From the NCBI GenBank assembly GCA_029862165.1, contig JAOTXU010000017.1:2914-66913 (forward strand): DNA of 64,000 bases. Reading direction: 5' to 3'. The position numbers and the translations under genes are program-made. Shown in pieces: positions 3,764 to 15,528 of this stretch (position 1 is its first letter; every line of letters begins with the position of its first letter). The DNA is from Gammaproteobacteria bacterium (lineage in GTDB: Bacteria > Pseudomonadota > Gammaproteobacteria > Steroidobacterales > JABDKV01). The notes under the pieces are model-generated. The model was given only the letters and a program-made list of their open reading frames with translations. It had not been told where the DNA came from and did no database searches.

Positions 3764-5128
3764 CTAGTCTTCCGAATCAGCCGTGGCAGATTGCTCTTGC
3801 TTGGCGGATGCTTCGGCCGCCTGTAACCGGCCCGTCAACAGTTTGACAAATTGATCACCGGGCAGCGGCCCGGTCGTGGTACCCCTGCCTTCGTGAATAA
3901 TGACAAACGTCGGGGCCCTCGTGATCAAGCCTTGCGCGTCGTAAAGATCTTTGACGACACGCTCGAGTCCTTGACGGCTCTCGAAACAGCCGCGAAATTT
4001 TTGCATGTCGAGTTCGAGGTCTTCGGCCAACGCAAGCAATGCAGCATCGGCATTCTCATTAGCCCATTGTTCGGAATCGGCATGCAGCCGGCCGTGCATC
4101 TGCCAGTATTGCTGCTGATCACCGGCGCATTCAGCGGCCACGGCCGCAACGAGCGCATGCTCGTGTACCCGTAGCGGTAATTGCTTGTCGACCCACAGCA
4201 CTTTGCCCGGGTCGACGAGTTCCTTGTCGATAACGGGTTGCGCTTCGAGCGTATGCTTCTGGCAGGCCGGGCACTGAAAGTCATTGAACTCGACGACCAC
4301 CACCTGTGCTTCGGGGTTGCCCTTGTATGCGTCGCCGGCCATCGTGAAGCCGGGCCGTTCGGGATCGGGGGCGAGACCCTCGGCTTTGGCCCACAGCGGC
4401 AGCTCGGGCGGCGCGGGCTTTGGATCCTCGGGCGGTGCTTCGCCGGCAATCAGCGCATCGGCATAACGCGCAAATCGCGCCAACGGATGCGCACCGCTCA
4501 TTTCGTAAGTTTTGTCGCTGCCGGTTGAGAGAAAGCGAAAACTGGGTGTGCCGTTGTAGCCAAGACCGCGACCCTCTTCGACGCTGGCCGTTACTTGTGC
4601 CGCTATGGAGCCCTCGGCAATGCAGGCTTTGTATTTCTGCATATCGGCGCCGAATTCTTCCGCCACGCCAGCCAGAAAATCACTTGGATCGGGCAGCCGG
4701 TTCCACTCGCCCTGTCGAGCAAACAAGGCATCGTGCATTTTCCAGTACGCCGCGGCGCCCTGCTGGCCGACACAGTTCGTGGCGACGTGCCCAACGGCCG
4801 CAGTCGGATGCAGGCCCTCAAGCGGCAGGTCACGGAACACGAGCTTGAGCTGGCCGGTGCGCACATACTGATCGAGCAACGCCGGCACTGTCTGACGGAA
4901 ATGCCGGCCGCAGAACGGGCATAGATAATCGCTCCACTCCTCCAGCGTGACCGGCGCATCCACCTTGCCGATAAACGGGTGGCCCGCATCCGTGAAACCG
5001 ACAGGCATGTCGTCGTGGGTTGCCGACTGTGCCGTCGTGTCTTGCGCGGTGATGTCCTGTGCGCACGCAATTAGCACAATCAGCATCATCACAGACAATA
5101 CACTGTCTTTTAATAGATAAATCTTCAT
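3764..5128 (-). CDS. Lipoprotein with two tandem DsbA-like thioredoxin-fold domains
   Basis: The signal peptide ends in a lipobox (VLIAC). Two DsbA-type modules follow, each with its own CxxC (..DYLCPFCGRH.. and ..DFQCPACQKH..) and a conserved GTPSF / APTF cis-Pro loop region. Confidence 0.75.
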   Translation of the reverse strand: MKIYLLKDSVLSVMMLIVLIACAQDITAQDTTAQSATHDDMPVGFTDAGHPFIGKVDAPVTLEEWSDYLCPFCGRHFRQTVPALLDQYVRTGQLKLVFRDLPLEGLHPTAAVGHVATNCVGQQGAAAYWKMHDALFARQGEWNRLPDPSDFLAGVAEEFGADMQKYKACIAEGSIAAQVTASVEEGRGLGYNGTPSFRFLSTGSDKTYEMSGAHPLARFARYADALIAGEAPPEDPKPAPPELPLWAKAEGLAPDPERPGFTMAGDAYKGNPEAQVVVVEFNDFQCPACQKHTLEAQPVIDKELVDPGKVLWVDKQLPLRVHEHALVAAVAAECAGDQQQYWQMHGRLHADSEQWANENADAALLALAEDLELDMQKFRGCFESRQGLERVVKDLYDAQGLITRAPTFVIIHEGRGTTTGPLPGDQFVKLLTGRLQAAEASAKQEQSATADSED

Positions 5129-5285: not shown

Positions 5286-7538
5286 CTACTCGATCGTCAC
5301 CGTCGCGTCGTCGGACGGATCCGGAGAAACCGGTGTCGTCTCATCGTCCTCAAGCTGGCCCGTCACGGTGTCCGTCACTGTTGCCGTGCCGTCCGGACTG
5401 TCGATCACCGCATCGAACGAGCAGGAAACTGAGTCGCCATTGCTAGCCGGGATGACTGTGTCCAATTCGTCACACGTATTATTGGAAATGTTGGGGTTGT
5501 TCGAGTCTAACAAGTCCCCATAGGGCGTGTCAGTGAGGCTGATCAACGTCAATGGATCCGTATCGACCGAAAGGTTGTCAATAGTCACCCGGTAACTAAC
5601 GACTGCCTTCGTCACGATCTTCGTCACTGCTGCCGCTGGGTCGACGTTGTTGAAGTTGACAGCCGCGACGTCCATTGCGCTTACGGGCACATTGTCATCG
5701 TCCACACCGGAGGCGGTTCCGGTATTGTCAATCATGTCACCCACGTTCCCTTCCACAGGCACCGTCACCGAACAGCTATACATGCCGCCGGGGGCCAACA
5801 CTACGGGGGGCGTGACTACGTCGCAGTCACCCTGACCCTGCAGATCCATTAGCACGTCGTCGGTCAAGCTGTCGATAGTCACCGTATCCACCGTAGAGGT
5901 GTTGGTGACCTTGTACGTGTAGGTAACGTTGCCACGTGGTTCATTAACACAACCTGGACCGTCGACGCTGCCCATATCATCGCACAGCGGTGTTACCGTC
6001 TTCAATAACGTGATCATCGACGGCACGTCCACCACGGTGATAAGTGCGGTGTCCATGACGGGGCCTACACTAATTCCGTCATCGTCCACACCGGAGGCGG
6101 TTCCCTCATTGGGAATCGTATCACCCGCGTTGCCAGTCAAAGCCACCGTCACGGAGCAGCTATACATGCCGCCAGCTGCCAACTCTACGGCCGGGGTTAC
6201 GTCACAGTCACCCTGACCATCCAGATCGAGGAGCTGGTCATCGGTCAAGCTGTCGATGAACACCGTATCCACGTCAGAGGTGTTAGTGACCTTGTACGTA
6301 TAGGTAACGTCGCCACCCGGTTCCAGAATTTCAGTCGGGTTTCCCGTGCAGTTCAGCGCGTCTGAGCAAGCGGCCGTCTTCATAATCGAAATCGACGACG
6401 GATCATTGAGAATGTCCACCGTAGCAGGATCGGATCCCGTTACAGTCCTACCCTCAGAATCGGTCCCGGAGACATTGACCGTATCGGTGATACTGTCTAG
6501 GTAATTCCCCGAAATGGCCCGTATGAACGTGCACGTCGTAAACTCGCCCGGGCCCAATAACAAATCCGGATCATCACAGGTTGACGATATATCTGTGACT
6601 ATCATCCCGTCACTCAATTCGTCGTCAAGAATGGAATCTAGTTGGACGTCAGCGAACGGCGATGGATTTGTGATTGTCACAGTAAACGTCGCGTCGCCAC
6701 CCGGCTCAACCAAACAACCTGGGCCGTCAACATCTCCCGCAGGATCGCACAGCGGTGTAACCGTCTTGAGCACGTCCAGCTGAGTGACTGGCACCTCGAT
6801 AGGCAGGGTGAAGCCTATGTCGCAACGGCACTTCGACGGTGATCCCGGAAAGGCATCGAGCGGGCTCGTGCAAAGCTCGTTTGCGCCAAACTGCCGCCAA
6901 CTCGTGCAGTTCGGCAGATTCAACAGGCCGTCACCATCCGGATCGATGCATTTTGTTGTCAATGTGATCGTTGGATTCAGCGGATTATGACCGGGCTTAT
7001 CGATGTCGCCGCAAGTGTCCTGAATCAGGCCATTCGGATCGTCATCCTTGCCATCAAGATCCAACCACGGTTGGTCCGGTGTGAAAGGCATCACCGTGAT
7101 AGCACATTGCCCGGTAAGGGCGCCGTCCATGTTGGGATCGCCATCGACCGCCCAGTAGATCCCAACGTCGTGCCGCCGTTTGGCGGTGGTTATAACGTCG
7201 AATGTCGCGATGAATGTCACGGTATCACCCGGAAAGGCGCAGCCACCGTCTGGGTCCAGGATCTCGATGTCAGGCACGCCCGGCATCCCGTCTTTGTCGG
7301 CAACGCCGGCAACCTGGATGTCATTGGCGTTACAATTAAGGTCCCCAGGAAATATGTCATCCATACACCCATTGATACAGGTAGCTGGGTCGGTTGGGTC
7401 TCCTGCACACATCGATTGCGCGTTCGCGGTTGGCACCGCTATTAACATAATAACGGGCAGCAGCACCGCGAAAATCACAGCCTGCCCGAGAGAGCGCAGC
7501 GCAACTTGTTGAATTGTAACTCGTTTAGTTGTTATCAT
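5286..7538 (-). CDS. Secreted Cys-rich protein with four tandem ~125-aa beta-sandwich-type repeats (DUF11 / conserved-repeat-domain-like)
   Basis: 750 aa. An N-terminal signal peptide (..VPTANA|QS) is followed by a ~210-aa Cys/Asp-rich region with DxDGD-like motifs. Then come four repeats, each carrying VTYTYKVTNTS / IDSLTDD / GQGDCDV / GGMYSCSVTV / GTASGVDDD-type strings. I did not recognise a C-terminal anchor. Confidence 0.6.
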   Translation of the reverse strand: MITTKRVTIQQVALRSLGQAVIFAVLLPVIMLIAVPTANAQSMCAGDPTDPATCINGCMDDIFPGDLNCNANDIQVAGVADKDGMPGVPDIEILDPDGGCAFPGDTVTFIATFDVITTAKRRHDVGIYWAVDGDPNMDGALTGQCAITVMPFTPDQPWLDLDGKDDDPNGLIQDTCGDIDKPGHNPLNPTITLTTKCIDPDGDGLLNLPNCTSWRQFGANELCTSPLDAFPGSPSKCRCDIGFTLPIEVPVTQLDVLKTVTPLCDPAGDVDGPGCLVEPGGDATFTVTITNPSPFADVQLDSILDDELSDGMIVTDISSTCDDPDLLLGPGEFTTCTFIRAISGNYLDSITDTVNVSGTDSEGRTVTGSDPATVDILNDPSSISIMKTAACSDALNCTGNPTEILEPGGDVTYTYKVTNTSDVDTVFIDSLTDDQLLDLDGQGDCDVTPAVELAAGGMYSCSVTVALTGNAGDTIPNEGTASGVDDDGISVGPVMDTALITVVDVPSMITLLKTVTPLCDDMGSVDGPGCVNEPRGNVTYTYKVTNTSTVDTVTIDSLTDDVLMDLQGQGDCDVVTPPVVLAPGGMYSCSVTVPVEGNVGDMIDNTGTASGVDDDNVPVSAMDVAAVNFNNVDPAAAVTKIVTKAVVSYRVTIDNLSVDTDPLTLISLTDTPYGDLLDSNNPNISNNTCDELDTVIPASNGDSVSCSFDAVIDSPDGTATVTDTVTGQLEDDETTPVSPDPSDDATVTIE
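5289..6779 (-). repeat. Intragenic tandem domain repeats; the two central units are near-identical with a 384-bp offset
   Basis: The string gtcatcgtccacaccggaggcggttcc occurs at 5694 and again at 6078, an offset of 384 bp (128 codons). Repeat boundaries fall at roughly aa 254, 379, 504 and 632. Confidence 0.8.
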
Positions 7539-7821
7539 TCCCTTCCCCCAATCAGTTCTTGTGTTAATTGATTGATATCGACGCCCCTTTTTTGAATGCC
7601 ATCTGGGATGGCAACTTATGTAAAAGAGGAGCGTTTACGCCCCAAATGTAGTTCAGGTCGACCGATTTTTCCAGCGTGAAATGACACTTTTTGGAGAGCA
7701 TGTGTTGACCCAATCCGATGTCCGGCGGAGCGAGGCTTTGGGGCGTCCAACATTAAACCCACGTCTTATGTCAAAACCCTAGACGTGTCAAAGGATTATG
7801 AAAAAGCCCGGGTTCCAAAAA

Positions 7822-7837
7822 TGTGACGTCCGTCACA
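7822..7837. promoter_or_regulatory. CRP/Vfr-type binding site with perfect half-sites: TGTGA-cgtccg-TCACA
   Basis: This is an exact match to both consensus half-sites at the canonical 6-bp spacing. It lies in the 495-bp divergent intergenic region. A -10-like TACACT at 7858-7863 would put a transcription start near 7870, about 41 bp from the site centre, which is class II geometry. Confidence 0.55.
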
Positions 7838-7875
7838 GGTCGCGAGCCTCACGGCGCTACACTGCATCATAAGAT

Positions 7876-7965
7876 CTCGCCCGATAACGGCAAACTCCGA
7901 GTGATCGGAGGACGCAAATCCACGGGTCCCAGGAAATGTGGGATGGCCGGGTTACCGAAGGTGAG
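7876..7965 (+). promoter_or_regulatory. Candidate c-di-GMP-I (GEMM-I) riboswitch aptamer in the 5' leader of the 8034..8477 gene
   Basis: The conserved GEMM-I blocks appear in the canonical order:
- GGCAAAC (7889-7895).
- Hairpin CTCCGA-GTGA-TCGGAG (7895-7910) with a GNRA loop.
- GACGCAAATCC (7911-7921).
- Second hairpin ACGGG-TCCCA-ggaaatg-TGGGA-tgg-CCG (7922-7949).
- GGGTTACCGAAGG (7949-7961).
- Closing helix CTCGCC+CGATAAC (7876-7888) pairing with GTTACCG..GGTGAG (7951-7965).
The comparison is to my memory of the V. cholerae Vc2 aptamer. No covariance model was run. Confidence 0.7.
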
Positions 7966-7998
7966 AAAGCCTGAATGCACGGGCTCGGTGTCGGGATC

Positions 7999-8028
7999 TT
8001 TCCTTGATTTAGTTTCAGGAAAAGGAAA
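7999..8028 (+). promoter_or_regulatory. Possible SD-sequestering hairpin (expression platform)
   Basis: TTTCCTT (7999-8005) is the exact complement of the Shine-Dalgarno AAGGAAA (8022-8028), which lies 5 nt upstream of the ATG at 8034. The loop is 16 nt. Confidence 0.35.
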
Positions 8029-8033
8029 CCCCT

Positions 8034-8477
8034 ATGAAGATTCGACACCTTGTTGCTTTGTGTTATCTCTTTGGCGCGACCGCGCAGGCGGAAGAAATGG
8101 ACGTCTACGTGTGGGACCCGGGCTGCAATCACACGACTGCCACCAATTGGTTCACGGTGCCAGCGTCGGAAGGGACACAATCAATCCTTGTTGACCTTAG
8201 CGGCTGCACTGAGGAACAGATCGGTAGGTTGTTGTTTTTCGGTAACTACGCAACGAAAACGAGCGGCCGGCAACTGTCGTCCAAGCATAAAGTGCGCCTG
8301 CACTTATCTGCTCTCGATAGCTTCGGCAATGTAATAACGCAAATGACGTCAGATTCCGGATCGATACTCGCCGACGTGGCGCACCTGAATTCCCCGGCCT
8401 GCTTGCTCGTGGCCGAGAATATGAATCGTAAGAAAGATGTGAAGATTCGTTTGCGCGCGCAGCTAATAGCTCCTTGA
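8034..8477 (+). CDS. Small secreted protein of unknown function (147 aa)
   Basis: It has a good SD (AAGGAAA) and a signal peptide MKIRHLVALCYLFGATAQA|EE. The mature part is ~128 aa with three Cys. I recognised no family. A strong hairpin follows the gene. Confidence 0.7.
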   Translation: MKIRHLVALCYLFGATAQAEEMDVYVWDPGCNHTTATNWFTVPASEGTQSILVDLSGCTEEQIGRLLFFGNYATKTSGRQLSSKHKVRLHLSALDSFGNVITQMTSDSGSILADVAHLNSPACLLVAENMNRKKDVKIRLRAQLIAP

Positions 8478-8488
8478 AAAGGCAATGG

Positions 8489-8515
8489 GTAGCCCGCCAC
8501 TATGTGGCGGGCTAC
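8489..8515. terminator. Strong hairpin between the convergent genes 8034..8477 (+) and kmo (-)
   Basis: A 12-bp stem (GTAGCCCGCCAC / GTGGCGGGCTAC) has a 3-nt loop. The U-tract is poor on the plus strand, and CCTTTTC follows on the minus strand. Terminator function is plausible but not certain. Confidence 0.5.
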
Positions 8516-8660
8516 TATAAGTAGGTAGTGGATAGGCAAAAATTCCCTACCGAAAGTAAGTCACAGGCCGGGGCGCGTGTTCGCCGGCGCGAGGCTTGCC
8601 GCCGGCGTCTGCGGACGTGTGATGAACAGCGCTACGGTATGACCTTTGTCCGGACAGACT

Positions 8661-10016
8661 CTACAGTTGTTCTGTTATGAGTTTTTCGGCTAACGCATAG
8701 TCAACAATATCCAGCGTTTCGCTGCTACCGAGCAGTTGTTCGAGTATTTCTTGTTGGATGCTGCCGCGTCGCTGTGCCTCGGCATAGGGCACGTGATGAA
8801 ACATGATGAGCGAATAACGTGGGACAAAAGTATCCGGGAAGCGTCGCTCCAACTCCCACGCCAGTTCTTTTTTCAGGTGAAACCGCGGGTCGCGTACGCT
8901 GTCACGCATTTCGACATAGTTCTCCAGGGCCATAGCCGCGATCGCGTCAGTGTTGGGTTTCCGGTGCGATTCAAACTCGGCAAATACCCGTTCCCACCCT
9001 CTGGGACCGGGCGTGGCCTTGTCCGCGATACAGCGATCAAGTTGAAAACAATCCTCGAACGCGCAATTCATGCCCTGGCCGTGAAACGGAACGACACTGT
9101 GCGCCGCGTCGCCCACCAATAGAAATTTTCCACCGACACGCCAGGGCTGGCAGTACACCGTTACCATCGCACCGGTTGGATTGGCGAAAAACTGTTCCGC
9201 CAGGTCTGGTATCAGTGCCAGAGCGTCGGGAAACTGTTGCTGGAAAAACTCATTGATCGCGGAAGCGGTAGACAACGATTCAAAACTGAGATCACCGGCG
9301 CGCGGCAAAAATAAAGTAACTGTAAAGCTGCCATCGAGGTTTGGCAGCGCGATCAGCATGTAGTCGCCACGTGGCCAGATGTGCAAGGCGTTCGCATCGA
9401 TTCGATGCTCGTTGTCTGCGGTGACCGGTATGCTTAGCTCCTTATATGCGTGGTCGAGATAGTCTTCCCGTGCATGATAGCCGGGCAATTTCGACATCTG
9501 CCGGCGAACGATCGAACCGGCGCCGTCTGCAGCAATGACAGGTGTCTGCTCGAGTACAAATTGACGGCCTGTGTCTTCTTCGCGGATACGTACGTCACCG
9601 GAACGCATATCTGCCGCCATGACGCGCCGTTGAAAATGAAATTCCACGCCATATTGGTGCTCGGCGGTGTTGAGCAGTAATTCATTCAAACCGCTACGGG
9701 ACACCGAATAGATGACTTCTTCGTCGTTCTTGCCGTAAGGCTGAAAACCCAGCTCGCCGGACGGGTCATGCAGCATGCGCCCGCGCATCGTAATCAGTAA
9801 CTCGCTTACCGATTTGTACAAGCCCACTTCACGCAACGCGTGTATGCCGCGGTTTGCCAGTGCGAGATTGATGGAACGCCCGGCCGGGATCTCGGTGCTG
9901 CGCAAGTCAGGGCGGCTTTCGTAGACTTCTACCGGGTAGCCGCGCCGCGCCAGGTAAATCGCCAATAACGATCCGGCGAGCCCCGCACCCAATATAACGA
10001 TGCGTTCGTTGCTCAC
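8661..10016 (-). CDS. kmo: Kynurenine 3-monooxygenase (FAD-dependent)
   Basis: 451 aa. The FAD fingerprint IVILGAGLAGSLLAIYLARRGYPVEVYE is present, as is the class A flavoprotein monooxygenase motif LVGDAAH. It sits in a kynurenine-pathway operon, and its GTG start overlaps the kynU stop (GTGA). Confidence 0.85.
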   Translation of the reverse strand: MSNERIVILGAGLAGSLLAIYLARRGYPVEVYESRPDLRSTEIPAGRSINLALANRGIHALREVGLYKSVSELLITMRGRMLHDPSGELGFQPYGKNDEEVIYSVSRSGLNELLLNTAEHQYGVEFHFQRRVMAADMRSGDVRIREEDTGRQFVLEQTPVIAADGAGSIVRRQMSKLPGYHAREDYLDHAYKELSIPVTADNEHRIDANALHIWPRGDYMLIALPNLDGSFTVTLFLPRAGDLSFESLSTASAINEFFQQQFPDALALIPDLAEQFFANPTGAMVTVYCQPWRVGGKFLLVGDAAHSVVPFHGQGMNCAFEDCFQLDRCIADKATPGPRGWERVFAEFESHRKPNTDAIAAMALENYVEMRDSVRDPRFHLKKELAWELERRFPDTFVPRYSLIMFHHVPYAEAQRRGSIQQEILEQLLGSSETLDIVDYALAEKLITEQL

Positions 10017-11281
10017 GTCGCGAGCAGCTCCTGCATGACTTCAACGAAGCGATACACTTCGGTGTAGCGGTTATACAGTGGCACCGGCGCAACACGAATT
10101 ACATCGGGTTCGCGCCAGTCGCAGATTACGCCACGGATACCGAGTCGCTTCTGCACCTCGCGCCCGAGTTCCGGCCGCCGTAGCCGCAACGACAACTGGC
10201 TGGCGCGTGCGTGCTGCGGCGTAATTATCTGGATGTGCTCATCGAGTTTCTTATCGACCAACCAAGCGAGATACGAGGTAAGTTTTGTTGATTTGTCTCG
10301 TAACGCGGGGATGCCTACGCGATCGAAAATGTCCAGCGAGGCAAGTACTGGCGCCAGTGACAGAATGGGCGGATTACTAAGCTGCCAACCCTCGGCACCC
10401 GGGATCGGAATGAATTCCGGGCCCATGCGAAAACGAGAACTCTTGTCGTGCCCCCACCAGCCGGCAAGGCGGGAGAGGCTGTCGTCCTCAGCATAACGTT
10501 TATTGATATAGCAACCGCCGATCGCGCCGGGGCCGGAATTCATGTATTTGTACGTGCACCAGGCAGCAAAATCCACATCCCAATCGTGCAATTGCAGTGG
10601 AATGTTGCCGATTGCGTGTGCCAGGTCAAAACCAACCATGCAGCCCTTGTTGTGACCCAAACGGGTAATCTCGGCCATATCCAGGACCTGGCCGCTGTAA
10701 TATTGCACACCCGGCAAAAGTATCAGGGCAATCTCATCGCCGTGTTTGTCGATCGTGTCACTAATATTTTGCTCCGCCAGGAAAAACTCGGATTCTCTTG
10801 GGGCGATTTCGATCAGGTTTTCTGCCGGATCCAGACCGTGGAATTTCAGTTGCGAAACAACAGCGTAGCGATCGGAAGGAAAGGCGGGCTTTTCGATTAG
10901 AATTTTTTTTCGTTTGCCGGACGGTCGGAAAAAACTGACCATCATCAAGTGCAGATTGACCGTAAGTGTATTCATGCACACGACTTCGATGTCTTTTGCA
11001 CCGACCAAACGGGCAGAAGCCGCTGTTGCCAGCTCGTGATAGGGCATCCATGGACGACGGCCAAAAAAATGCCCCTCTACCGCGTAACGCTGCCAGTCAT
11101 CGAGTTCCTCGTCGACATAGCGGCGTGCGCTCTTTGGCTGCAACCCCAGCGAATTGCCGGCCAGATATAACTGCGAACGGCCGCGCTTGTCCGGCGGGAT
11201 GTGGAATAGTTTGCGGTATTCGCTTAGTGGATCGAGCCGATCTTCTTCCAGGGCATAAGCCGTGTCGTCCTGAAAAGTCAT
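10013..11281 (-). CDS. kynU: Kynureninase (PLP-dependent)
   Basis: 422 aa. Kynureninase-like strings include YLAGNSLGLQPK, DFAAWCTYKYMNSGPGAIGG, the PLP-lysine region and WWGH. The ATG overlaps the upstream stop (ATGA). Confidence 0.9.
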   Translation of the reverse strand: MTFQDDTAYALEEDRLDPLSEYRKLFHIPPDKRGRSQLYLAGNSLGLQPKSARRYVDEELDDWQRYAVEGHFFGRRPWMPYHELATAASARLVGAKDIEVVCMNTLTVNLHLMMVSFFRPSGKRKKILIEKPAFPSDRYAVVSQLKFHGLDPAENLIEIAPRESEFFLAEQNISDTIDKHGDEIALILLPGVQYYSGQVLDMAEITRLGHNKGCMVGFDLAHAIGNIPLQLHDWDVDFAAWCTYKYMNSGPGAIGGCYINKRYAEDDSLSRLAGWWGHDKSSRFRMGPEFIPIPGAEGWQLSNPPILSLAPVLASLDIFDRVGIPALRDKSTKLTSYLAWLVDKKLDEHIQIITPQHARASQLSLRLRRPELGREVQKRLGIRGVICDWREPDVIRVAPVPLYNRYTEVYRFVEVMQELLAT

Positions 11282-12090
11282 GCTGCAATCCGGTACAACA
11301 GCGGCCGGCTCGGTGCGGCATCGCTGACAAACGGTGCGATCTGCAGGGCCAGCAAATGTAAGCCGTCATCGATTCGGTCCGGCACGTAAATCATCTCAGT
11401 TATCGTTGCATGGGCACGGGTGGCATCGTGTACCGACCGACTCCCGCTGGCCAGACCCCAGAATATTCGATGAGCATCCAGATGTGCATCATCGAGTCGG
11501 TCTACCGAAGGGGTGTCTACGAGCAAGTGGCGTACATTTCTCTCGACTATCCAGCGCATCGCTTCAACGCTGAAATACGGTGTTTGATCGATCGGCCATT
11601 CGCGCCGGGTTTTTTCTTTATCATTAGGTAAGGTGCGTATGATCAGCGCGTCAACGGCGCTCAGGTCAGCGTCTGTCAAGGCTTTGTGCAAAGCGTCTTG
11701 AGTGATGAGACGGTCTTTCTTGCTCGGTTTCTGCCAATCCTGTTCATGAACTTCACCGGCCGGTGCGGTTGCGATGGTTACGACTTGCGCCAGATAGAGT
11801 GCCCGCATTGCCATGTCATTGACGGCGATTCGCTCGTTGGTGATGTGTCCGATACATTCGGTATGAGTACCATTGCAGTGTGGGATCAGGTCCAGGTGTT
11901 CGGCGTTGCAACTGCCACCAAGCCGTGTATCCCCGATAAAATCGCCGGCATGCATCGGCCGCGCCGTTGCAGCGTCGGCGCCAAAAAAGCCGGGTTGCGG
12001 ACCATCGAAACGCAGCGGGATGGAAATATCGACCGGGTCACCGGTGGCCACGTATTCCCGATCACCGCTTTGCAGCACCAGACGACTCAC
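11278..12090 (-). CDS. Cyclase-family protein, candidate kynurenine formamidase with a divergent motif
   Basis: It carries HCNGTHTECIGH where the cyclase/KynB family has HxGTHxDxPxH. Its position is between ACMSD and kynU. I place the start at GTG 12090, which overlaps the ACMSD stop (GTGA). The ORF track extends the frame to TTG 12120. Confidence 0.6.
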   Translation of the reverse strand: MSRLVLQSGDREYVATGDPVDISIPLRFDGPQPGFFGADAATARPMHAGDFIGDTRLGGSCNAEHLDLIPHCNGTHTECIGHITNERIAVNDMAMRALYLAQVVTIATAPAGEVHEQDWQKPSKKDRLITQDALHKALTDADLSAVDALIIRTLPNDKEKTRREWPIDQTPYFSVEAMRWIVERNVRHLLVDTPSVDRLDDAHLDAHRIFWGLASGSRSVHDATRAHATITEMIYVPDRIDDGLHLLALQIAPFVSDAAPSRPLLYRIAA

Positions 12091-13112
12091 AGGAATTGCT
12101 CCGCTTCCAGCCCTAGCCAACGTAGTGCCGTTCCGTGTAGGAGTAACGCACGCGTGTCTTTGCTCATTGCCATCGATTCAATCATCTCGCCGGGCACGTG
12201 CTCGCCCAGCGGAAACGGATAATCACTACCCAGGGCAATATTGTCTGCGCCCATGAGCTTGATCATGTAGTTCAACACATGGGGTTCGTGTACCAGTGAA
12301 TCGACAATAAATCGCCCGAGATATTCGCGCGGATTTGTCGTGTTGTTAACGGCGACCAGGTCCGGTCGCACCTTGAACCCGTGTTCAATACGTCCGATGC
12401 TTGCCGGAAATGCTCCGCCACCGTGGGCAAAAGCGATTCGCAACTTGGGCAGTCGTTCAAATACGCCGCCAAAAATCATGGAGCAGATCGACAGTGAGGT
12501 TTCGGCTGGCATGCCCACTAGCCATGGCAGCCAGTACCTGCTCATCCGGTCCCGCCCGAGCATTTCCCACGGGTGTACAAATATTGCGGCCCCCATTTGT
12601 TCGGCCGCCTCGAAAATAGGAAAGACTTGCGGGTCGTCCAGGTTCCAGCCGTTGACGTGGGAGCCTATTTCTATGCCGGCCAGACCCAGTTCGTTCACAC
12701 AGCGCTCCATCTCACCTATTGCCATGTCCGCCGACTGCATCGGTACTGTTCCCAGGCCGACAAAACGAGTTGGATGCTCGTTAACCAGCGACGCGATATG
12801 GTCGTTTAACAAGCGTGACAGGTCCAGTGTATCTTCGGGGCGCGCCCAGTACGAAAACATGATGGGTACAGTTGATAGAACCTGGACATTGACACCGGTC
12901 TTGTCGCATTCGGTGATACGGGTATCCGGGCACCAACAGTTTGCTTCAATTTCGCGGAAAAATTTGCCGTCACTCAGTAGATTGGCGCAGCCGGGGCCCT
13001 TGTGTTCGAGCGCGACGAAACCGCCGTAACCATAGCGTTCTTTCAGATCCGGCCAATTTTCGGGCAGGACATGGGTATGGATGTCTATTTTTAGCATCCC
13101 CTGTCCGGGCAT
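12087..13112 (-). CDS. 2-amino-3-carboxymuconate-6-semialdehyde decarboxylase (amidohydrolase_2 family)
   Basis: MLKIDIHTHVLPENWPDLKERYGYGGFV closely resembles the eukaryotic and bacterial ACMSD/NbaD N-terminus, including the HxH metal site. The alternative start at ATG 13097 (MLKIDIH) fits homologues better than 13112. Confidence 0.88.
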   Translation of the reverse strand: MPGQGMLKIDIHTHVLPENWPDLKERYGYGGFVALEHKGPGCANLLSDGKFFREIEANCWCPDTRITECDKTGVNVQVLSTVPIMFSYWARPEDTLDLSRLLNDHIASLVNEHPTRFVGLGTVPMQSADMAIGEMERCVNELGLAGIEIGSHVNGWNLDDPQVFPIFEAAEQMGAAIFVHPWEMLGRDRMSRYWLPWLVGMPAETSLSICSMIFGGVFERLPKLRIAFAHGGGAFPASIGRIEHGFKVRPDLVAVNNTTNPREYLGRFIVDSLVHEPHVLNYMIKLMGADNIALGSDYPFPLGEHVPGEMIESMAMSKDTRALLLHGTALRWLGLEAEQFL

Positions 13113-13115
13113 GAT

Positions 13116-14087
13116 TCAGGCGCTCTCGGGTCGATCCATGATGTCACCACAACGTTGGCAAGTGCGGTGCTCGGTGCTGGAAAAAAAACGGTCAAAGATA
13201 GGTGGCAGTTGGCTCACGATATCAACCAGGTCGAGGTACTCCTCGTATAATTTTTCATGACAGTTCTCGCAGTACCACATGAAACCGTCTTTCTCTCCGG
13301 GCCGTCTGGTACGTTCTATTACCAGACCGATCGTATCCGCAAAGCGCTGCGGCGAATGCGGTAAACGTGGAGGCAGCAGAAAAATCTCGCCTTCTTTGAT
13401 CGGTATGTCTACGGGACGACCGTCCTGCATCGTTTTTAGCAGCATATCGCCTTCGAGCTGGTAGAAAAATTCTTCGCCTTCATCATAATGATAGTCCTTG
13501 CGGGAGTTTGGTCCACCGACCACCATGACGATGAATTCCGTGTTCAGATACACCTGCTGGTTGCAAACGGGTGGCTTGAGCAAGTGGCGGTTTTCGTCTA
13601 TCCAGGCATTGAGATTGAACGGCAACTTCAGGGCATTCATTGTGGTTCCTTTTTTCTGCGTCACGTCTGCACGATTCAACGTGGCGACGCACTTCAGTTC
13701 AATTGCAATGGGCGTTGGGAGACAAGAGACCTGCACGGTTGTTCGGCAAGGCTGATTAACGCCAAAATATTCGGCGTAGAGCCGATTGTAGACTTCGAAA
13801 TCGCGGTCGATGTCAGTCAGAAAAACCGTAACGTCGACCAGTCGGTCCCAACCGGAGCCAGATGCCTCCAGTACGCTTTTCACATTGGCGAATACCGAAT
13901 GACACTGTGCCGCCATGTCGTAGCTTGCGACGTTGCCCGCGTCATCAAGTACCACTCCAGGGATGGCTTCACCATCGACTGAGCGCGGGCCGATTCCGGA
14001 CAGGAACAGCAAGTCGCCCACTCGACGTGCATGCGGGTAGGCGCCGACTGGTGGTGGAGCCTGGGCAGTTCGAATGATGTCAGTCAT
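13116..14087 (-). CDS. In-frame fusion of a RidA/YjgF-family domain (2-aminomuconate deaminase-like) and 3-hydroxyanthranilate 3,4-dioxygenase
   Basis: - The N-terminal ~150 aa are RidA-like (MTDIIRTAQAPPPVGAYPHARRVGDLLFLSGIG..TTVQVSCLP..IELKCVA).
- The C-terminal 174 aa are a cupin HAAO (..MVVGGPNSRKDYHYDEGEEFFYQLEGDM..LLPPRLPHSPQR..) with the two CxxC pairs of the rubredoxin-like site.
- No stop codon separates the two parts.
- I chose the start at ATG 14087, which overlaps the end of the upstream gene by 8 nt. Confidence 0.8.
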   Translation of the reverse strand: MTDIIRTAQAPPPVGAYPHARRVGDLLFLSGIGPRSVDGEAIPGVVLDDAGNVASYDMAAQCHSVFANVKSVLEASGSGWDRLVDVTVFLTDIDRDFEVYNRLYAEYFGVNQPCRTTVQVSCLPTPIAIELKCVATLNRADVTQKKGTTMNALKLPFNLNAWIDENRHLLKPPVCNQQVYLNTEFIVMVVGGPNSRKDYHYDEGEEFFYQLEGDMLLKTMQDGRPVDIPIKEGEIFLLPPRLPHSPQRFADTIGLVIERTRRPGEKDGFMWYCENCHEKLYEEYLDLVDIVSQLPPIFDRFFSSTEHRTCQRCGDIMDRPESA

Positions 14088-15528
14088 ATCGCACACACAC
14101 GTTTTTGGGTTCGGTAAAAAACCGCATGGATTCAAAGCCACCCTCGCGGCCCATGCCGGATTGTTTCATACCACCCATGGGCGTACGCAGATCACGCATC
14201 ATCCATGTATTGACCCATACCAGGCCGGCCTCGATTCGTCGCGCCACTCGCAGACACCGGGTCACGTCACTGCCCCAGATTGACGCGGCCAGACCATAAG
14301 TGCTCTGGTTACTCAGTGCGATTGCTTCGTCTTCATCGTCGAAGGGCATTATCGTTACGACAGGACCAAAAATCTCTTCCTGGTTGGTGCGACACTGGGC
14401 AGGCAAACCTTCAATGACAGTGGGCGCGACAAACCAACCCTCGGCACAACGCCCCGGCAGGTTGACCGGCGTGCCCCCACACAACACTTCACCGCCTTCG
14501 TCCTGCGCGAGCTGGATACAATCCAACACTTTGTCACGGTGGGCTGCCGAGATAAGGGCGCCCTGGTCGCTACCGTTCACCAGCGGGTCGCCGACGACCA
14601 GTTGTTTGGCACGGGCGACAAAGTCTTCGCGAAAACGCTCGTAAACCTCGTTTTGCACCAGGATACGCGAACCGCACAGACAGACTTCGCCCTGGTTGGT
14701 AAAAGCCGCCCGTAGGGTCTGGTCCAGGGTGCGATCCCAGTCACAATCGGCAAAGACGACCGTCGGATTCTTGCCACCCATTTCGAGCGAGAGTTTCTTG
14801 AATCGACCCGCCGTGCTCTTGGCAATTTGTTTGCCGGTGCTGGTGCCGCCCGTGAAGGAGATAGCGGCAATTTCGGTTTGGTCGACCAGCGCCTGCCCGA
14901 CGCCGGCACCGCGTCCGTGTACGATGTTCAAGACGCCGGGCGGCACATTGGCCCGACTCAACAAACGGCTAAACAGGTAGGCCGTCATGGGTGTAAGTTC
15001 CGAGGGTTTTGCAATTACTGTGTTACCGGCAGCTAGGGCCGGGGCGATTTTCCATGACAACAGATACAACGGCAGATTCCACGGCGAGATACACGCAACG
15101 ACACCCAACGGTTCGCGTAGTGTGTAGTTGATTGCGTCCTGTCCCATCGCATGTGATTCACTTGCGAAATGCTCGGCAGCACCAGCGTAGAAACGCAGGT
15201 TTGCAGCGACACGCGGTATGTCGACCGATTCGGCAAGTCGCAGCGGCTTGCCGGTGTCGACAGATTCTGCCTGCGCAAACTCGGCAGCACGTTCTTCCAC
15301 CAGATTCGCAAGCCGGTTCAAGACACGACCGCGTTCTGCCGCCGACGTTGCGGCCCAGGGATCGAATGCGGATTGTGCAGCAGACATGGCTTTTTTCAGG
15401 TCGTCGGCAGACGAGTCCGGCGCACGTGCGTAGGCCTGTCCGGTAGCCGGTTCGAATACGTCGAGCCAGCGATCTTCAGCCGGCGCTGCCACATCACCAT
15501 CGATGTAGTTGTAGATTTTTTCCATCAC
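14080..15528 (-). CDS. 2-aminomuconate-6-semialdehyde dehydrogenase (NAD+ aldehyde dehydrogenase family)
   Basis: 482 aa. ALDH motifs are present (ELGGKNP-like LEMGGKNP, catalytic-Cys region FTNQGEVCLCGSR, EEIFGPV). The operon context with ACMSD and HAAO supports the specific assignment. Confidence 0.8.
   Translation of the reverse strand: MMEKIYNYIDGDVAAPAEDRWLDVFEPATGQAYARAPDSSADDLKKAMSAAQSAFDPWAATSAAERGRVLNRLANLVEERAAEFAQAESVDTGKPLRLAESVDIPRVAANLRFYAGAAEHFASESHAMGQDAINYTLREPLGVVACISPWNLPLYLLSWKIAPALAAGNTVIAKPSELTPMTAYLFSRLLSRANVPPGVLNIVHGRGAGVGQALVDQTEIAAISFTGGTSTGKQIAKSTAGRFKKLSLEMGGKNPTVVFADCDWDRTLDQTLRAAFTNQGEVCLCGSRILVQNEVYERFREDFVARAKQLVVGDPLVNGSDQGALISAAHRDKVLDCIQLAQDEGGEVLCGGTPVNLPGRCAEGWFVAPTVIEGLPAQCRTNQEEIFGPVVTIMPFDDEDEAIALSNQSTYGLAASIWGSDVTRCLRVARRIEAGLVWVNTWMMRDLRTPMGGMKQSGMGREGGFESMRFFTEPKNVCVRYD

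Follow-up and report, generated by a model that had tools for sequence, protein, structure and literature searches.

Which protein does a bacterium place behind both a CRP-type promoter site and a cyclic di-GMP (c-di-GMP) riboswitch, and what might that protein do? The question is raised by a small gene at 8034–8477 (forward strand; ATG start, 147-residue precursor) in a 64,000-nucleotide (nt) stretch of an uncultured gammaproteobacterium (contig JAOTXU010000017.1, assembly GCA_029862165.1), hereafter the window. An initial annotation, made from the letters alone, had described its product as an orphan secreted protein and the sole apparent cargo of a CRP-site/riboswitch leader. Our analysis favors, at a probability of roughly 60%, a reading in which the gene encodes an exported jelly-roll protein that is gated twice, by promoter and by leader, and is a separately regulated member of an envelope or extracellular module together with a CLIPPER_2 protein and a tandem DsbA oxidoreductase. 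The riboswitch and the promoter are of known kinds in a new arrangement, and the cargo is a genuinely undescribed small-protein family.

Promoter and riboswitch leader of the small-protein gene

The leader carries a c-di-GMP-I (GEMM-I) aptamer at 7880–7960 (forward strand), matched within Rfam clan CL00126 at 63.1 bits with an E-value of 1.5e-12. Using an nhmmer profile together with Rfam, we found the aptamer 5' of the small gene in 14 of 18 close-clade genes: the window and related loci L002, L003, L005, L006, L007, L008, L009, L011, L012, L015/L016, L017, L018 and L021/L022. The same searches found none at L001, at either of the two gene copies in L013, at L019, or at the distant L023 and L024. 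The initial annotation had proposed surveying homologues for such leaders, and the survey thus came out in favor of a lasting association.

The class of the aptamer deserves care. The best-scoring Rfam model in the window is RF03167 (c-di-GMP-I-GGC), at 63.1 bits against a gathering score of 59, and this model also ranks first in 13 of the 14 aptamer loci (60.5–75.4 bits), L009 being the exception. A second family of the clan exceeds its own gathering score at 7880–7960 as well; since the cut-off of the UAU family (65.9) lies above the best score of 63.1, this second family must be RF01051, an identity obtained by elimination, as the RF01051 score itself was not displayed. The window has G 7889, A 7916 and C 7955 at the equivalents of the ligand contacts G20, A47 and C92 of Vc2. 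The A47 and C92 equivalents are invariant in 14 of 14 leaders, and the G20 equivalent is kept in 13 (A in L009). At the equivalent of A47, which is model position 37 and the first base left unpaired beyond P2, the RF03167 consensus conserves a G, and here all 14 leaders have A. We take that G to be the defining substitution of the GGC variant, whose name presumably denotes positions 20, 47 and 92. P2 is capped by a GNRA loop (GUGA in the window, GUGA or GUAA across the leaders), and compensatory changes on both sides affect three pairs of P2 and two of P3. We class the element with the canonical c-di-GMP-I aptamers rather than with the GGC variant, and take c-di-GMP as its probable ligand. Rfam thresholds are a likely source of mis-annotation in this respect, given that the window and 13 related loci receive the RF03167 label despite A at the A47 equivalent.

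Some leaders depart at single positions. At L009:382-461 the G20 equivalent is A (AUAGAGCAAAC), the signature of 3'3'-cGAMP-sensing GEMM-Ib elements, and the best Rfam model there is the UAU variant, at 59.1 against its threshold of 65.9. In L018 and L021 the A91 equivalent is G.

Upstream of the aptamer, at 7822–7837, lies a perfect match to the CRP/Clp-type palindrome TGTGA-N6-TCACA (TGTGACGTCCGTCACA), the single occurrence in the 64 kb, against 0.08 expected by chance. Its half-sites are invariant in 11 aligned leaders, and it stands 58–62 nt 5' of the aptamer in 13 loci (L018 with one mismatch). A –10-like hexamer, TACACT (TAGACT in relatives), follows at 7858–7863 on the forward strand, 20 nt 3' of the palindrome and in a conserved block, GCGCTAGACTG. 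L001 retains both palindrome and hexamer although its aptamer is missing. A promoter scan gave no call at 7858–7863 because there is no –35 element. TACACT probably serves as the –10 element, with transcription starting near 7870; the center of the palindrome would then lie at about –40.5 to –41.5, the class II CRP geometry in which the bound activator replaces the –35 element, and the factor that binds there is presumably of the CRP family. In one relative, L007:2113-2221, a long near-perfect hairpin stands just 5' of the CRP-type site, and microRNA-precursor models match both of its strands, well below their thresholds.

The leader is 165 nt long, and a terminator scan found no terminator between aptamer and ATG. 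Across the 14 loci its mean identity is 76%, whereas the synonymous sites of the gene are saturated, so the RNA itself is under selection. The conserved leaders hold two mutually exclusive folds, which we call states A and B. Both draw on a 5' switching strand, AAGAUCUCGCCCG (7871–7883), which can pair either with 7992–8000, forming a helix that we call P0, or with 7956–7966, forming an extended P1. In state A, AAGAUCUCG (7871–7879) pairs with CGGGAUCUU (7992–8000) as P0, and the helix continues through CCCG (7880–7883) with CGGUG within 7987–7991, the downstream anti-P1 thereby taking the 5' strand of P1. In state B, UCUCGCCCG (7875–7883) pairs with CGAAGGUGAGA (7956–7966), giving P1 and a six-pair extension; the freed GGAUCUUUCCUU (7994–8005) can then pair with the Shine–Dalgarno (SD) region AAGGAAACCCC (8022–8032), which forms the 3' strand of the sequestering hairpin and is thereby buried. 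The 3' switching strand UCGGUGUCGGGAUCUUUCCUU (7985–8005) thus combines anti-P1 and the 3' strand of P0 (7985–8000) with an overlapping anti-SD (7994–8005). All of these strands lie on the forward strand.

Pairing is well kept in both states. State A is 97.3% paired across the 14 leaders, and P0 97%. In state B 95.4% of cells are paired (95% for the P1-plus-extension strand, 91% for the SD helix), and nine pairs are changed on both sides. Within the P1 extension, C-G is replaced by U-A in the window and L018, and another pair occurs as G-U, G-C or U-A. In the SD helix, L002 has a compensatory C-G for U-A; the column concerned covaries in P0 as well, one position of this locus thus following both strands with which it can pair, A-U-A having become G-C-G. 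Eight of the 11 columns of the GGGATCTTTCC core are invariant in the 14 aligned leaders and the other three are kept in at least 90%, as would be expected of a strand with two partners. Under constrained folding the two states lie within 1–4 kcal/mol of each other in most of twelve leaders (up to about 6), and the unpaired probability of the SD is 0.00–0.02 in state B in 10 of the 12, against 0.01–0.75 in state A. Together these features imply that the leader exerts translational control.

The exported protein, its family and the gene module

Translation would start from a purine-rich SD, AGGAAAAGGAAA, at 8017–8028, whose GGA (8024–8026) lies 7 nt 5' of the ATG. The precursor begins with MKIRHLVALCYLFGATAQA, followed by EE: an MKIR n-region, a hydrophobic core and an A-Q-A cleavage site make up a Sec-type signal (8034–8090), which we assigned by eye, without a predictor, and which leaves a mature jelly-roll domain of about 128 residues (8091–8474). 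Small residues at positions –3 and –1 of the cleavage site are kept across 34 homologues. By these features the 147-residue protein is Sec-exported, a signal that speaks for the periplasm only and so falls short of the secreted protein and candidate effector of the initial annotation. We considered lipidation at Cys10 and rejected it: Leu precedes Cys10, there is no lipobox, and Cys10 is not conserved. The mature part has three cysteines, C31, C58 and C123. C31 and C58 are the only invariant residues among 49 diverse family members, which suggests one conserved disulfide, and C123 varies.

After the stop codon a GC-rich hairpin of 13 pairs (12 Watson–Crick and one G-U) with a 3-nt loop occupies 8488–8516 (forward strand). 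The 71-nt stretch that contains it (8470–8540) folds at –29.2 kcal/mol with a z-score of –3.3, and none of 200 shuffles was as stable. It does not qualify as an intrinsic terminator after the gene: there is no U tract (AUAAGUAGG comes after the hairpin) and the terminator scan gives no call. Most relatives have a post-gene hairpin of unrelated sequence, L011 and L024 have canonical terminators with true U tracts, and the hairpins of the window and L006 differ by a compensatory C:G to U:A change. The next gene, 8661–10016, is convergent, and within the window the small gene is the sole gene on the riboswitch transcript. In all these respects the initial annotation read the locus correctly: the strong SD, the Sec signal, the three mature cysteines, the 12-bp closing hairpin of a monocistronic gene, and a leader with CRP site and riboswitch.

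Its description of the protein as an orphan has to be given up. Thirty-four homologues, at 45–100% identity and nearly all of 142–156 residues, came out of a search of 5.8 billion proteins; they stem from marine-sediment metagenomes and from gammaproteobacterial metagenome-assembled genomes (MAGs), one of them named Woeseiaceae. A profile search of 1.84 billion cluster representatives gave 79 clusters (50% identity) at E < 1e-3, 45 of them at E < 1e-10, and nearly all 79 are stand-alone proteins of 130–180 residues; the long matches P0069, P0099, P0100 and P0112 were discarded as cadherin, Sel1 and other repeat artefacts. The gene is genuine and strongly conserved, with a dN/dS of about 0.05 against L006 at a dS of 1.5. 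Pfam has no match for the window protein or for any of the 49 diverse members, and NCBIfam has none for the 147-residue protein, in keeping with the annotation's remark that no family could be recognized. On these searches the protein belongs to an undescribed family of about 80 clusters. Three of its members, P0016, P0030 and P0031 (for example L018:623-1153), have N-termini that gene callers overextended through the in-frame riboswitch leader; the resulting translation (such as MAGLPKV...SVSGSFL) is an annotation artefact that reveals the conserved leader.

An AlphaFold2 model built on the 34-sequence alignment is all-beta (mean per-residue confidence, pLDDT, 86; predicted template-modeling score, pTM, 0.76), with a signal helix followed by eleven beta-strands, which agrees with the beta-rich look noted in the initial annotation. 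The predicted fold is a jelly-roll bearing a disulfide, for which no specific structural relative emerged. The profile and Foldseek searches that the initial annotation had recommended accordingly turned up no known family: PDB matches by Foldseek include Ena2A fibres, carbohydrate-binding modules, GOLD domains, plant-virus capsids, the beta-jelly-roll domain of Tk-SP and the superantigen YPM. The best of them, the Ena2A fibre subunit 9i0y, has an E-value of 5e-5, a TM score of 0.36–0.43 and a root-mean-square deviation (r.m.s.d.) of 12.6. We rejected assignment as an Ena (DUF3992) endospore-appendage subunit on the low TM score and the absence of a Pfam match. A sequence profile search of the PDB gave a single weak match, the C1q domain of adiponectin (4dou, E 8e-5), where a match of 8 bits per domain enters the score three times, the target being a single-chain trimer. 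A direct hhalign comparison with the C1q domain gave 22% probability (E 1e-3), and no C1q or TNF entry stands among the Foldseek top 50. We regard C1q/TNF-likeness as a lead and not as a finding.

The surroundings of the gene point to partners. On the reverse strand of the window, 5286–7538 encodes a 750-residue exported, Cys-rich CLIPPER_2 protein (Pfam PF24346, E 1.9e-8), with an N-terminal Cys-rich region and four to five immunoglobulin (Ig)-like CLIPPER_2/DUF7507 domains. Its AlphaFold2 model is a string of Ig-like domains (pLDDT 79), and Foldseek matches it to tandem-Ig arrays such as PrgB, RTX-adhesin extenders and alpha-2-macroglobulin. Next to it, at 3764–5128 on the same strand, is a 454-residue exported tandem DsbA/Thioredoxin_4 oxidoreductase (PF13462 twice, plus PF01323). 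The small protein has no homology to any part of the CLIPPER_2 protein (hhalign probability 0.1%).

This association recurs in relatives, where we judged linkage in loci long enough to show it, the CLIPPER_2 family partner measuring about 700–760 residues. L001 (a 3.8-Mb contig) and L002 (1.1 Mb) have the small gene, a CLIPPER_2 gene of about 760 residues and a double Thioredoxin_4/DsbA gene of about 440 residues on one strand, and a tblastn survey found the same-strand trio also in L003, L006 and L015. The small gene is followed by CLIPPER_2 in L011, L016, L017 and L022, whose contigs stop before any DsbA gene could show, and by DsbA in L008 and L012; in L005 CLIPPER precedes the small gene. 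The window has a divergent, L013-like layout, with the CLIPPER_2 and DsbA genes on the strand opposite to the small gene. At L013:3601-7373 and the near-identical L014, an inverted CLIPPER_2 gene lies between two small paralogues, which share 43% and 37% identity with the protein of the window; palindrome and aptamer are both absent at the two L013 copies. Even in L019, the most divergent close member, a Thioredoxin_4 gene still adjoins, facing the small gene. By gene order, the small gene, the CLIPPER_2 gene and the tandem DsbA gene form a conserved three-gene module in nearly every locus that can be judged. The claim that the small gene is the sole cargo therefore holds for the transcript in the window and fails for the module, whose other two genes lie downstream on the same strand in most relatives.

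Distant members differ. L023 and L024 (about 25–30% identity) have no CLIPPER gene; a gap of 390–570 nt is followed by large Cys-rich disintegrin/Dicty_CTDC proteins (the Cys-rich or neighboring regions are L023:9-3196, L023:4494-6329 and L024:5852-7228). Upstream in L023, two FGE-sulfatase-domain genes lie on the opposite strand, divergent from the small gene. Outside the module the gene content varies by locus. The window has lgt-thyA-folA to one side and, to the other, at 8661–15528 on the reverse strand and convergent to the small gene, a kynurenine and 3-hydroxyanthranilate pathway cluster: a KMO-like FAD monooxygenase, kynureninase, a cyclase/formamidase, an ACMSD-like amidohydrolase, a RidA plus 3-HAO fusion and an aldehyde dehydrogenase.

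Ahead of the CLIPPER_2 gene there is no conserved element that would amount to a second switch or a shared leader, only an A-rich stretch and an SD. In the window this 5' region holds two features on the reverse strand that are not conserved in relatives: a terminator-like hairpin, GGGGCGTAAACGCTCC then TCTTTTAC, at 7643–7628, and a hairpin, TGCCATCCCAGATGGCA, then TTC and an A6 run, at 7613–7597. A sigma-70-like match, TTGCCG-16-TATGAT (9 of 12 positions), lies at 7866–7893 on the reverse strand, antisense to the start of the riboswitch leader, and might serve as a promoter for the divergent CLIPPER_2 gene, reading across the CRP-type site.

Proposed working and competing explanations

In the working that we propose, transcription would start from the –35-less promoter near 7870, activated by a CRP-family protein bound at its site near –41.5. 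In the ligand-free RNA, 7871–7883 would pair with 7985–8000 as anti-P1/P0, so that half of the anti-SD is tied up and the ribosome-binding site stays partly accessible. Binding of c-di-GMP would let P1 and its extension (7875–7883 with 7956–7966) form and release GGGAUCUUUCCUU, which would pair with AAGGAAACCCC and close the ribosome-binding site. Ligand binding stabilizes P1 in this riboswitch class, as established for Vc2; since the P1 state is the one predicted to close the SD, translation would be off at high c-di-GMP, a direction that we hold to be somewhat more likely than not. Production of the protein would then call for an active CRP-family activator together with low c-di-GMP, a combination typical of starved, non-sessile cells. 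After Sec export, the C31–C58 pair would presumably be oxidized by the adjacent tandem DsbA, and the small protein may then act with the neighboring multi-Ig adhesin-like protein. That it is a binding or assembly partner of this protein is the most weakly inferred step of the scheme. Its own promoter, strong ribosome-binding site and terminal hairpin, and the gap of 230–590 nt before the large gene, would fit an abundant, separately dosed partner or subunit.

A bolder version of this idea, which we consider quite improbable, makes the small protein the regulated switch subunit of a previously unrecognized two-component adhesion system. The CLIPPER_2 protein would have a promoter to itself, and the riboswitch and CRP-family activator would decide whether to add a small disulfide-locked partner that caps, anchors, releases or retargets the large protein. 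If this were true, a second messenger would gate adhesion by translation of an accessory subunit and not by control of the adhesin itself.

Several observations weigh against the reading that we favor. P0 is almost invariant, such that covariation neither supports nor contradicts it; in the window the unpaired probability of the SD differs little between states (0.36 in A, 0.23 in B); and a short residual anti-SD hairpin remains in the ligand-free model. The structural matches are generic jelly-rolls and beta-sandwiches only, with TM scores of at most 0.5 in the PDB and tail-fibre/CBM-like matches of up to 0.55, at an r.m.s.d. of 19, in the BFVD viral library. The CLIPPER_2 family of about 700 residues is much wider (333 matches), and the CLIPPER_2 loci of the cultured bacteria Hahella ganghwensis (L025) and Shewanella salipaludis (L026) contain no small-family gene, DsbA or aptamer, from which it follows that the small protein is not an obligate partner. 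The whole reading, moreover, is drawn from the sequence of an uncultured MAG. At L026:3360-8103 the Shewanella CLIPPER_2 homologue lies 112 nt downstream of a PAS-GGDEF-EAL gene, and in L025 a HAMP-GGDEF gene lies 5 kb from the Hahella homologue; these neighbors suggest that CLIPPER_2 may be linked to c-di-GMP there by another route.

The regulatory part of the scheme could be read in other ways. Translation might be turned on by c-di-GMP, with P0 as a stable platform alongside the bound aptamer and the long SD hairpin restricted to RNAs whose aptamer is unfolded. Some GEMM-I elements, Vc1 of V. cholerae among them, are ON switches, adhesion factors are usually c-di-GMP-induced, and this logic would suit a biofilm or adhesion factor; P0 also coexists with aptamer stems P2 and P3 in several minimum-free-energy folds. 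However, P0, once continued, occupies 7880–7883, the 5' strand of P1, and thereby excludes the ligand-stabilized P1, whose extension has compensatory changes and frees the anti-SD as it forms, and SD accessibility falls in 10 of 12 leaders. We judge the ON direction unlikely. About equally unlikely, in our estimate, is that the protein at the palindrome is not cAMP-CRP but a Clp-like CRP homologue of the kind known from Xanthomonas, which c-di-GMP prevents from binding DNA; this would give two layers of c-di-GMP control and no integration of cAMP. Clp recognizes sites of the TGTGA-N6-TCACA type, both layers would shut the gene at high c-di-GMP in line with the OFF logic, and the host is an uncultured gammaproteobacterium related to Woeseiaceae; but the data do not separate the two regulators, and the closest documented case, gbpA, uses cAMP-CRP. 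That the aptamer is a true c-di-GMP-I-GGC specificity variant sensing some other ligand seems to us very improbable: the RF03167 scores invite this view, yet RF01051 passes its gathering score too, and the contact positions, above all the A in every leader where RF03167 has a conserved G, argue for the canonical class.

For the protein, the competing reading is a self-assembling fibre or coat subunit, a trimer or an Ena-like disulfide-linked polymer, of which CLIPPER_2 would be a minor or tip component. Its own promoter, strong ribosome-binding site, terminal hairpin and spacing resemble those of major-subunit genes, Ena2A is the top Foldseek match and capsid-type jelly-rolls are matched as well, the C1q-like motif match is a weak hint in the same direction, and a dedicated DsbA is linked. 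Against this stand several points: the TM score for Ena2A goes with an r.m.s.d. above 12, the adiponectin match is tripled by the single-chain trimer and falls to 22% in hhalign, no usher, sortase or secretion genes are linked, and the two invariant cysteines may just form an internal disulfide. We rate the fibre subunit as distinctly unlikely, and return to the doubly gated module member as the preferred reading.

Relation to known systems

The small gene defines an unannotated family whose regulatory and genomic surroundings are unusually clear, and these offer a way into function in uncultured sediment Gammaproteobacteria. The leader, if the preferred reading is right, would be a compact, well-conserved translational c-di-GMP-I switch in which both states can be read from the sequence. 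It also exposes an annotation trap, as Rfam thresholds call a specificity variant on aptamers with the canonical binding triad. Current understanding is not overturned, and the function of the protein is something we infer.

The closest parallel is gbpA of V. cholerae, a gene with the Vc1 GEMM-I element whose cAMP-CRP-dependent expression rises at low c-di-GMP, although the effect of c-di-GMP on its transcription is independent of Vc1 (PMC4545359). Here, too, a CRP-type site and a c-di-GMP-I aptamer precede one exported, surface-related protein gene, the predicted low-c-di-GMP, CRP-dependent logic matches, and leader and class II CRP-type promoter would integrate two signals as the gbpA leader does. 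The cargo, however, is unrelated: GbpA is a chitin binder of about 485 residues of the lytic polysaccharide monooxygenase type, a secreted colonization factor. Also unlike gbpA, the present system combines an SD-sequestering two-state leader with a putative class II promoter, in 14 loci of uncultured marine gammaproteobacteria.

As an RNA, the element resembles canonical c-di-GMP-I aptamers (RF01051, Vc2 type) in its three-helix junction, its GNRA tetraloop on P2, its G20/A47/C92 triad and its compensatory changes in P2 and P3. It differs in that the GGC model scores higher here, in that the short P1 is prolonged by a conserved six-pair extension, and in that anti-P1 and anti-SD are combined in one nearly invariant 3' strand. 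Features common to it and the RF03167 variant are CCACGG in P3 and the CCGAAG 3' end, to which L018 and L021 add the G at the A91 equivalent; the A in place of the conserved G at model position 37 sets it apart.

The oxidoreductase has its counterpart in the dedicated DsbA paralogues of fimbrial loci, such as Salmonella SrgA with PefA. There as here, a locus-specific periplasmic thiol oxidase is encoded beside likely Cys-containing substrates, but the present enzyme is a fused double Thioredoxin_4/DsbA of about 440–454 residues, and chaperone-usher genes are absent.

CLIPPER and CLIPPER_2 are isopeptide-bond domains of fibrillar adhesins, often with disulfides in Pseudomonadota (PMC12617251). 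The partner protein conforms to this type in its tandem CLIPPER_2 Ig-like domains, its conserved Lys, Asp/Glu and Asn and its many cysteines, and departs from it in being short (750 residues), with no recognizable anchor or secretion domain. The combination with a small jelly-roll protein and a tandem DsbA, which is what the present locus adds, is not described in that work.

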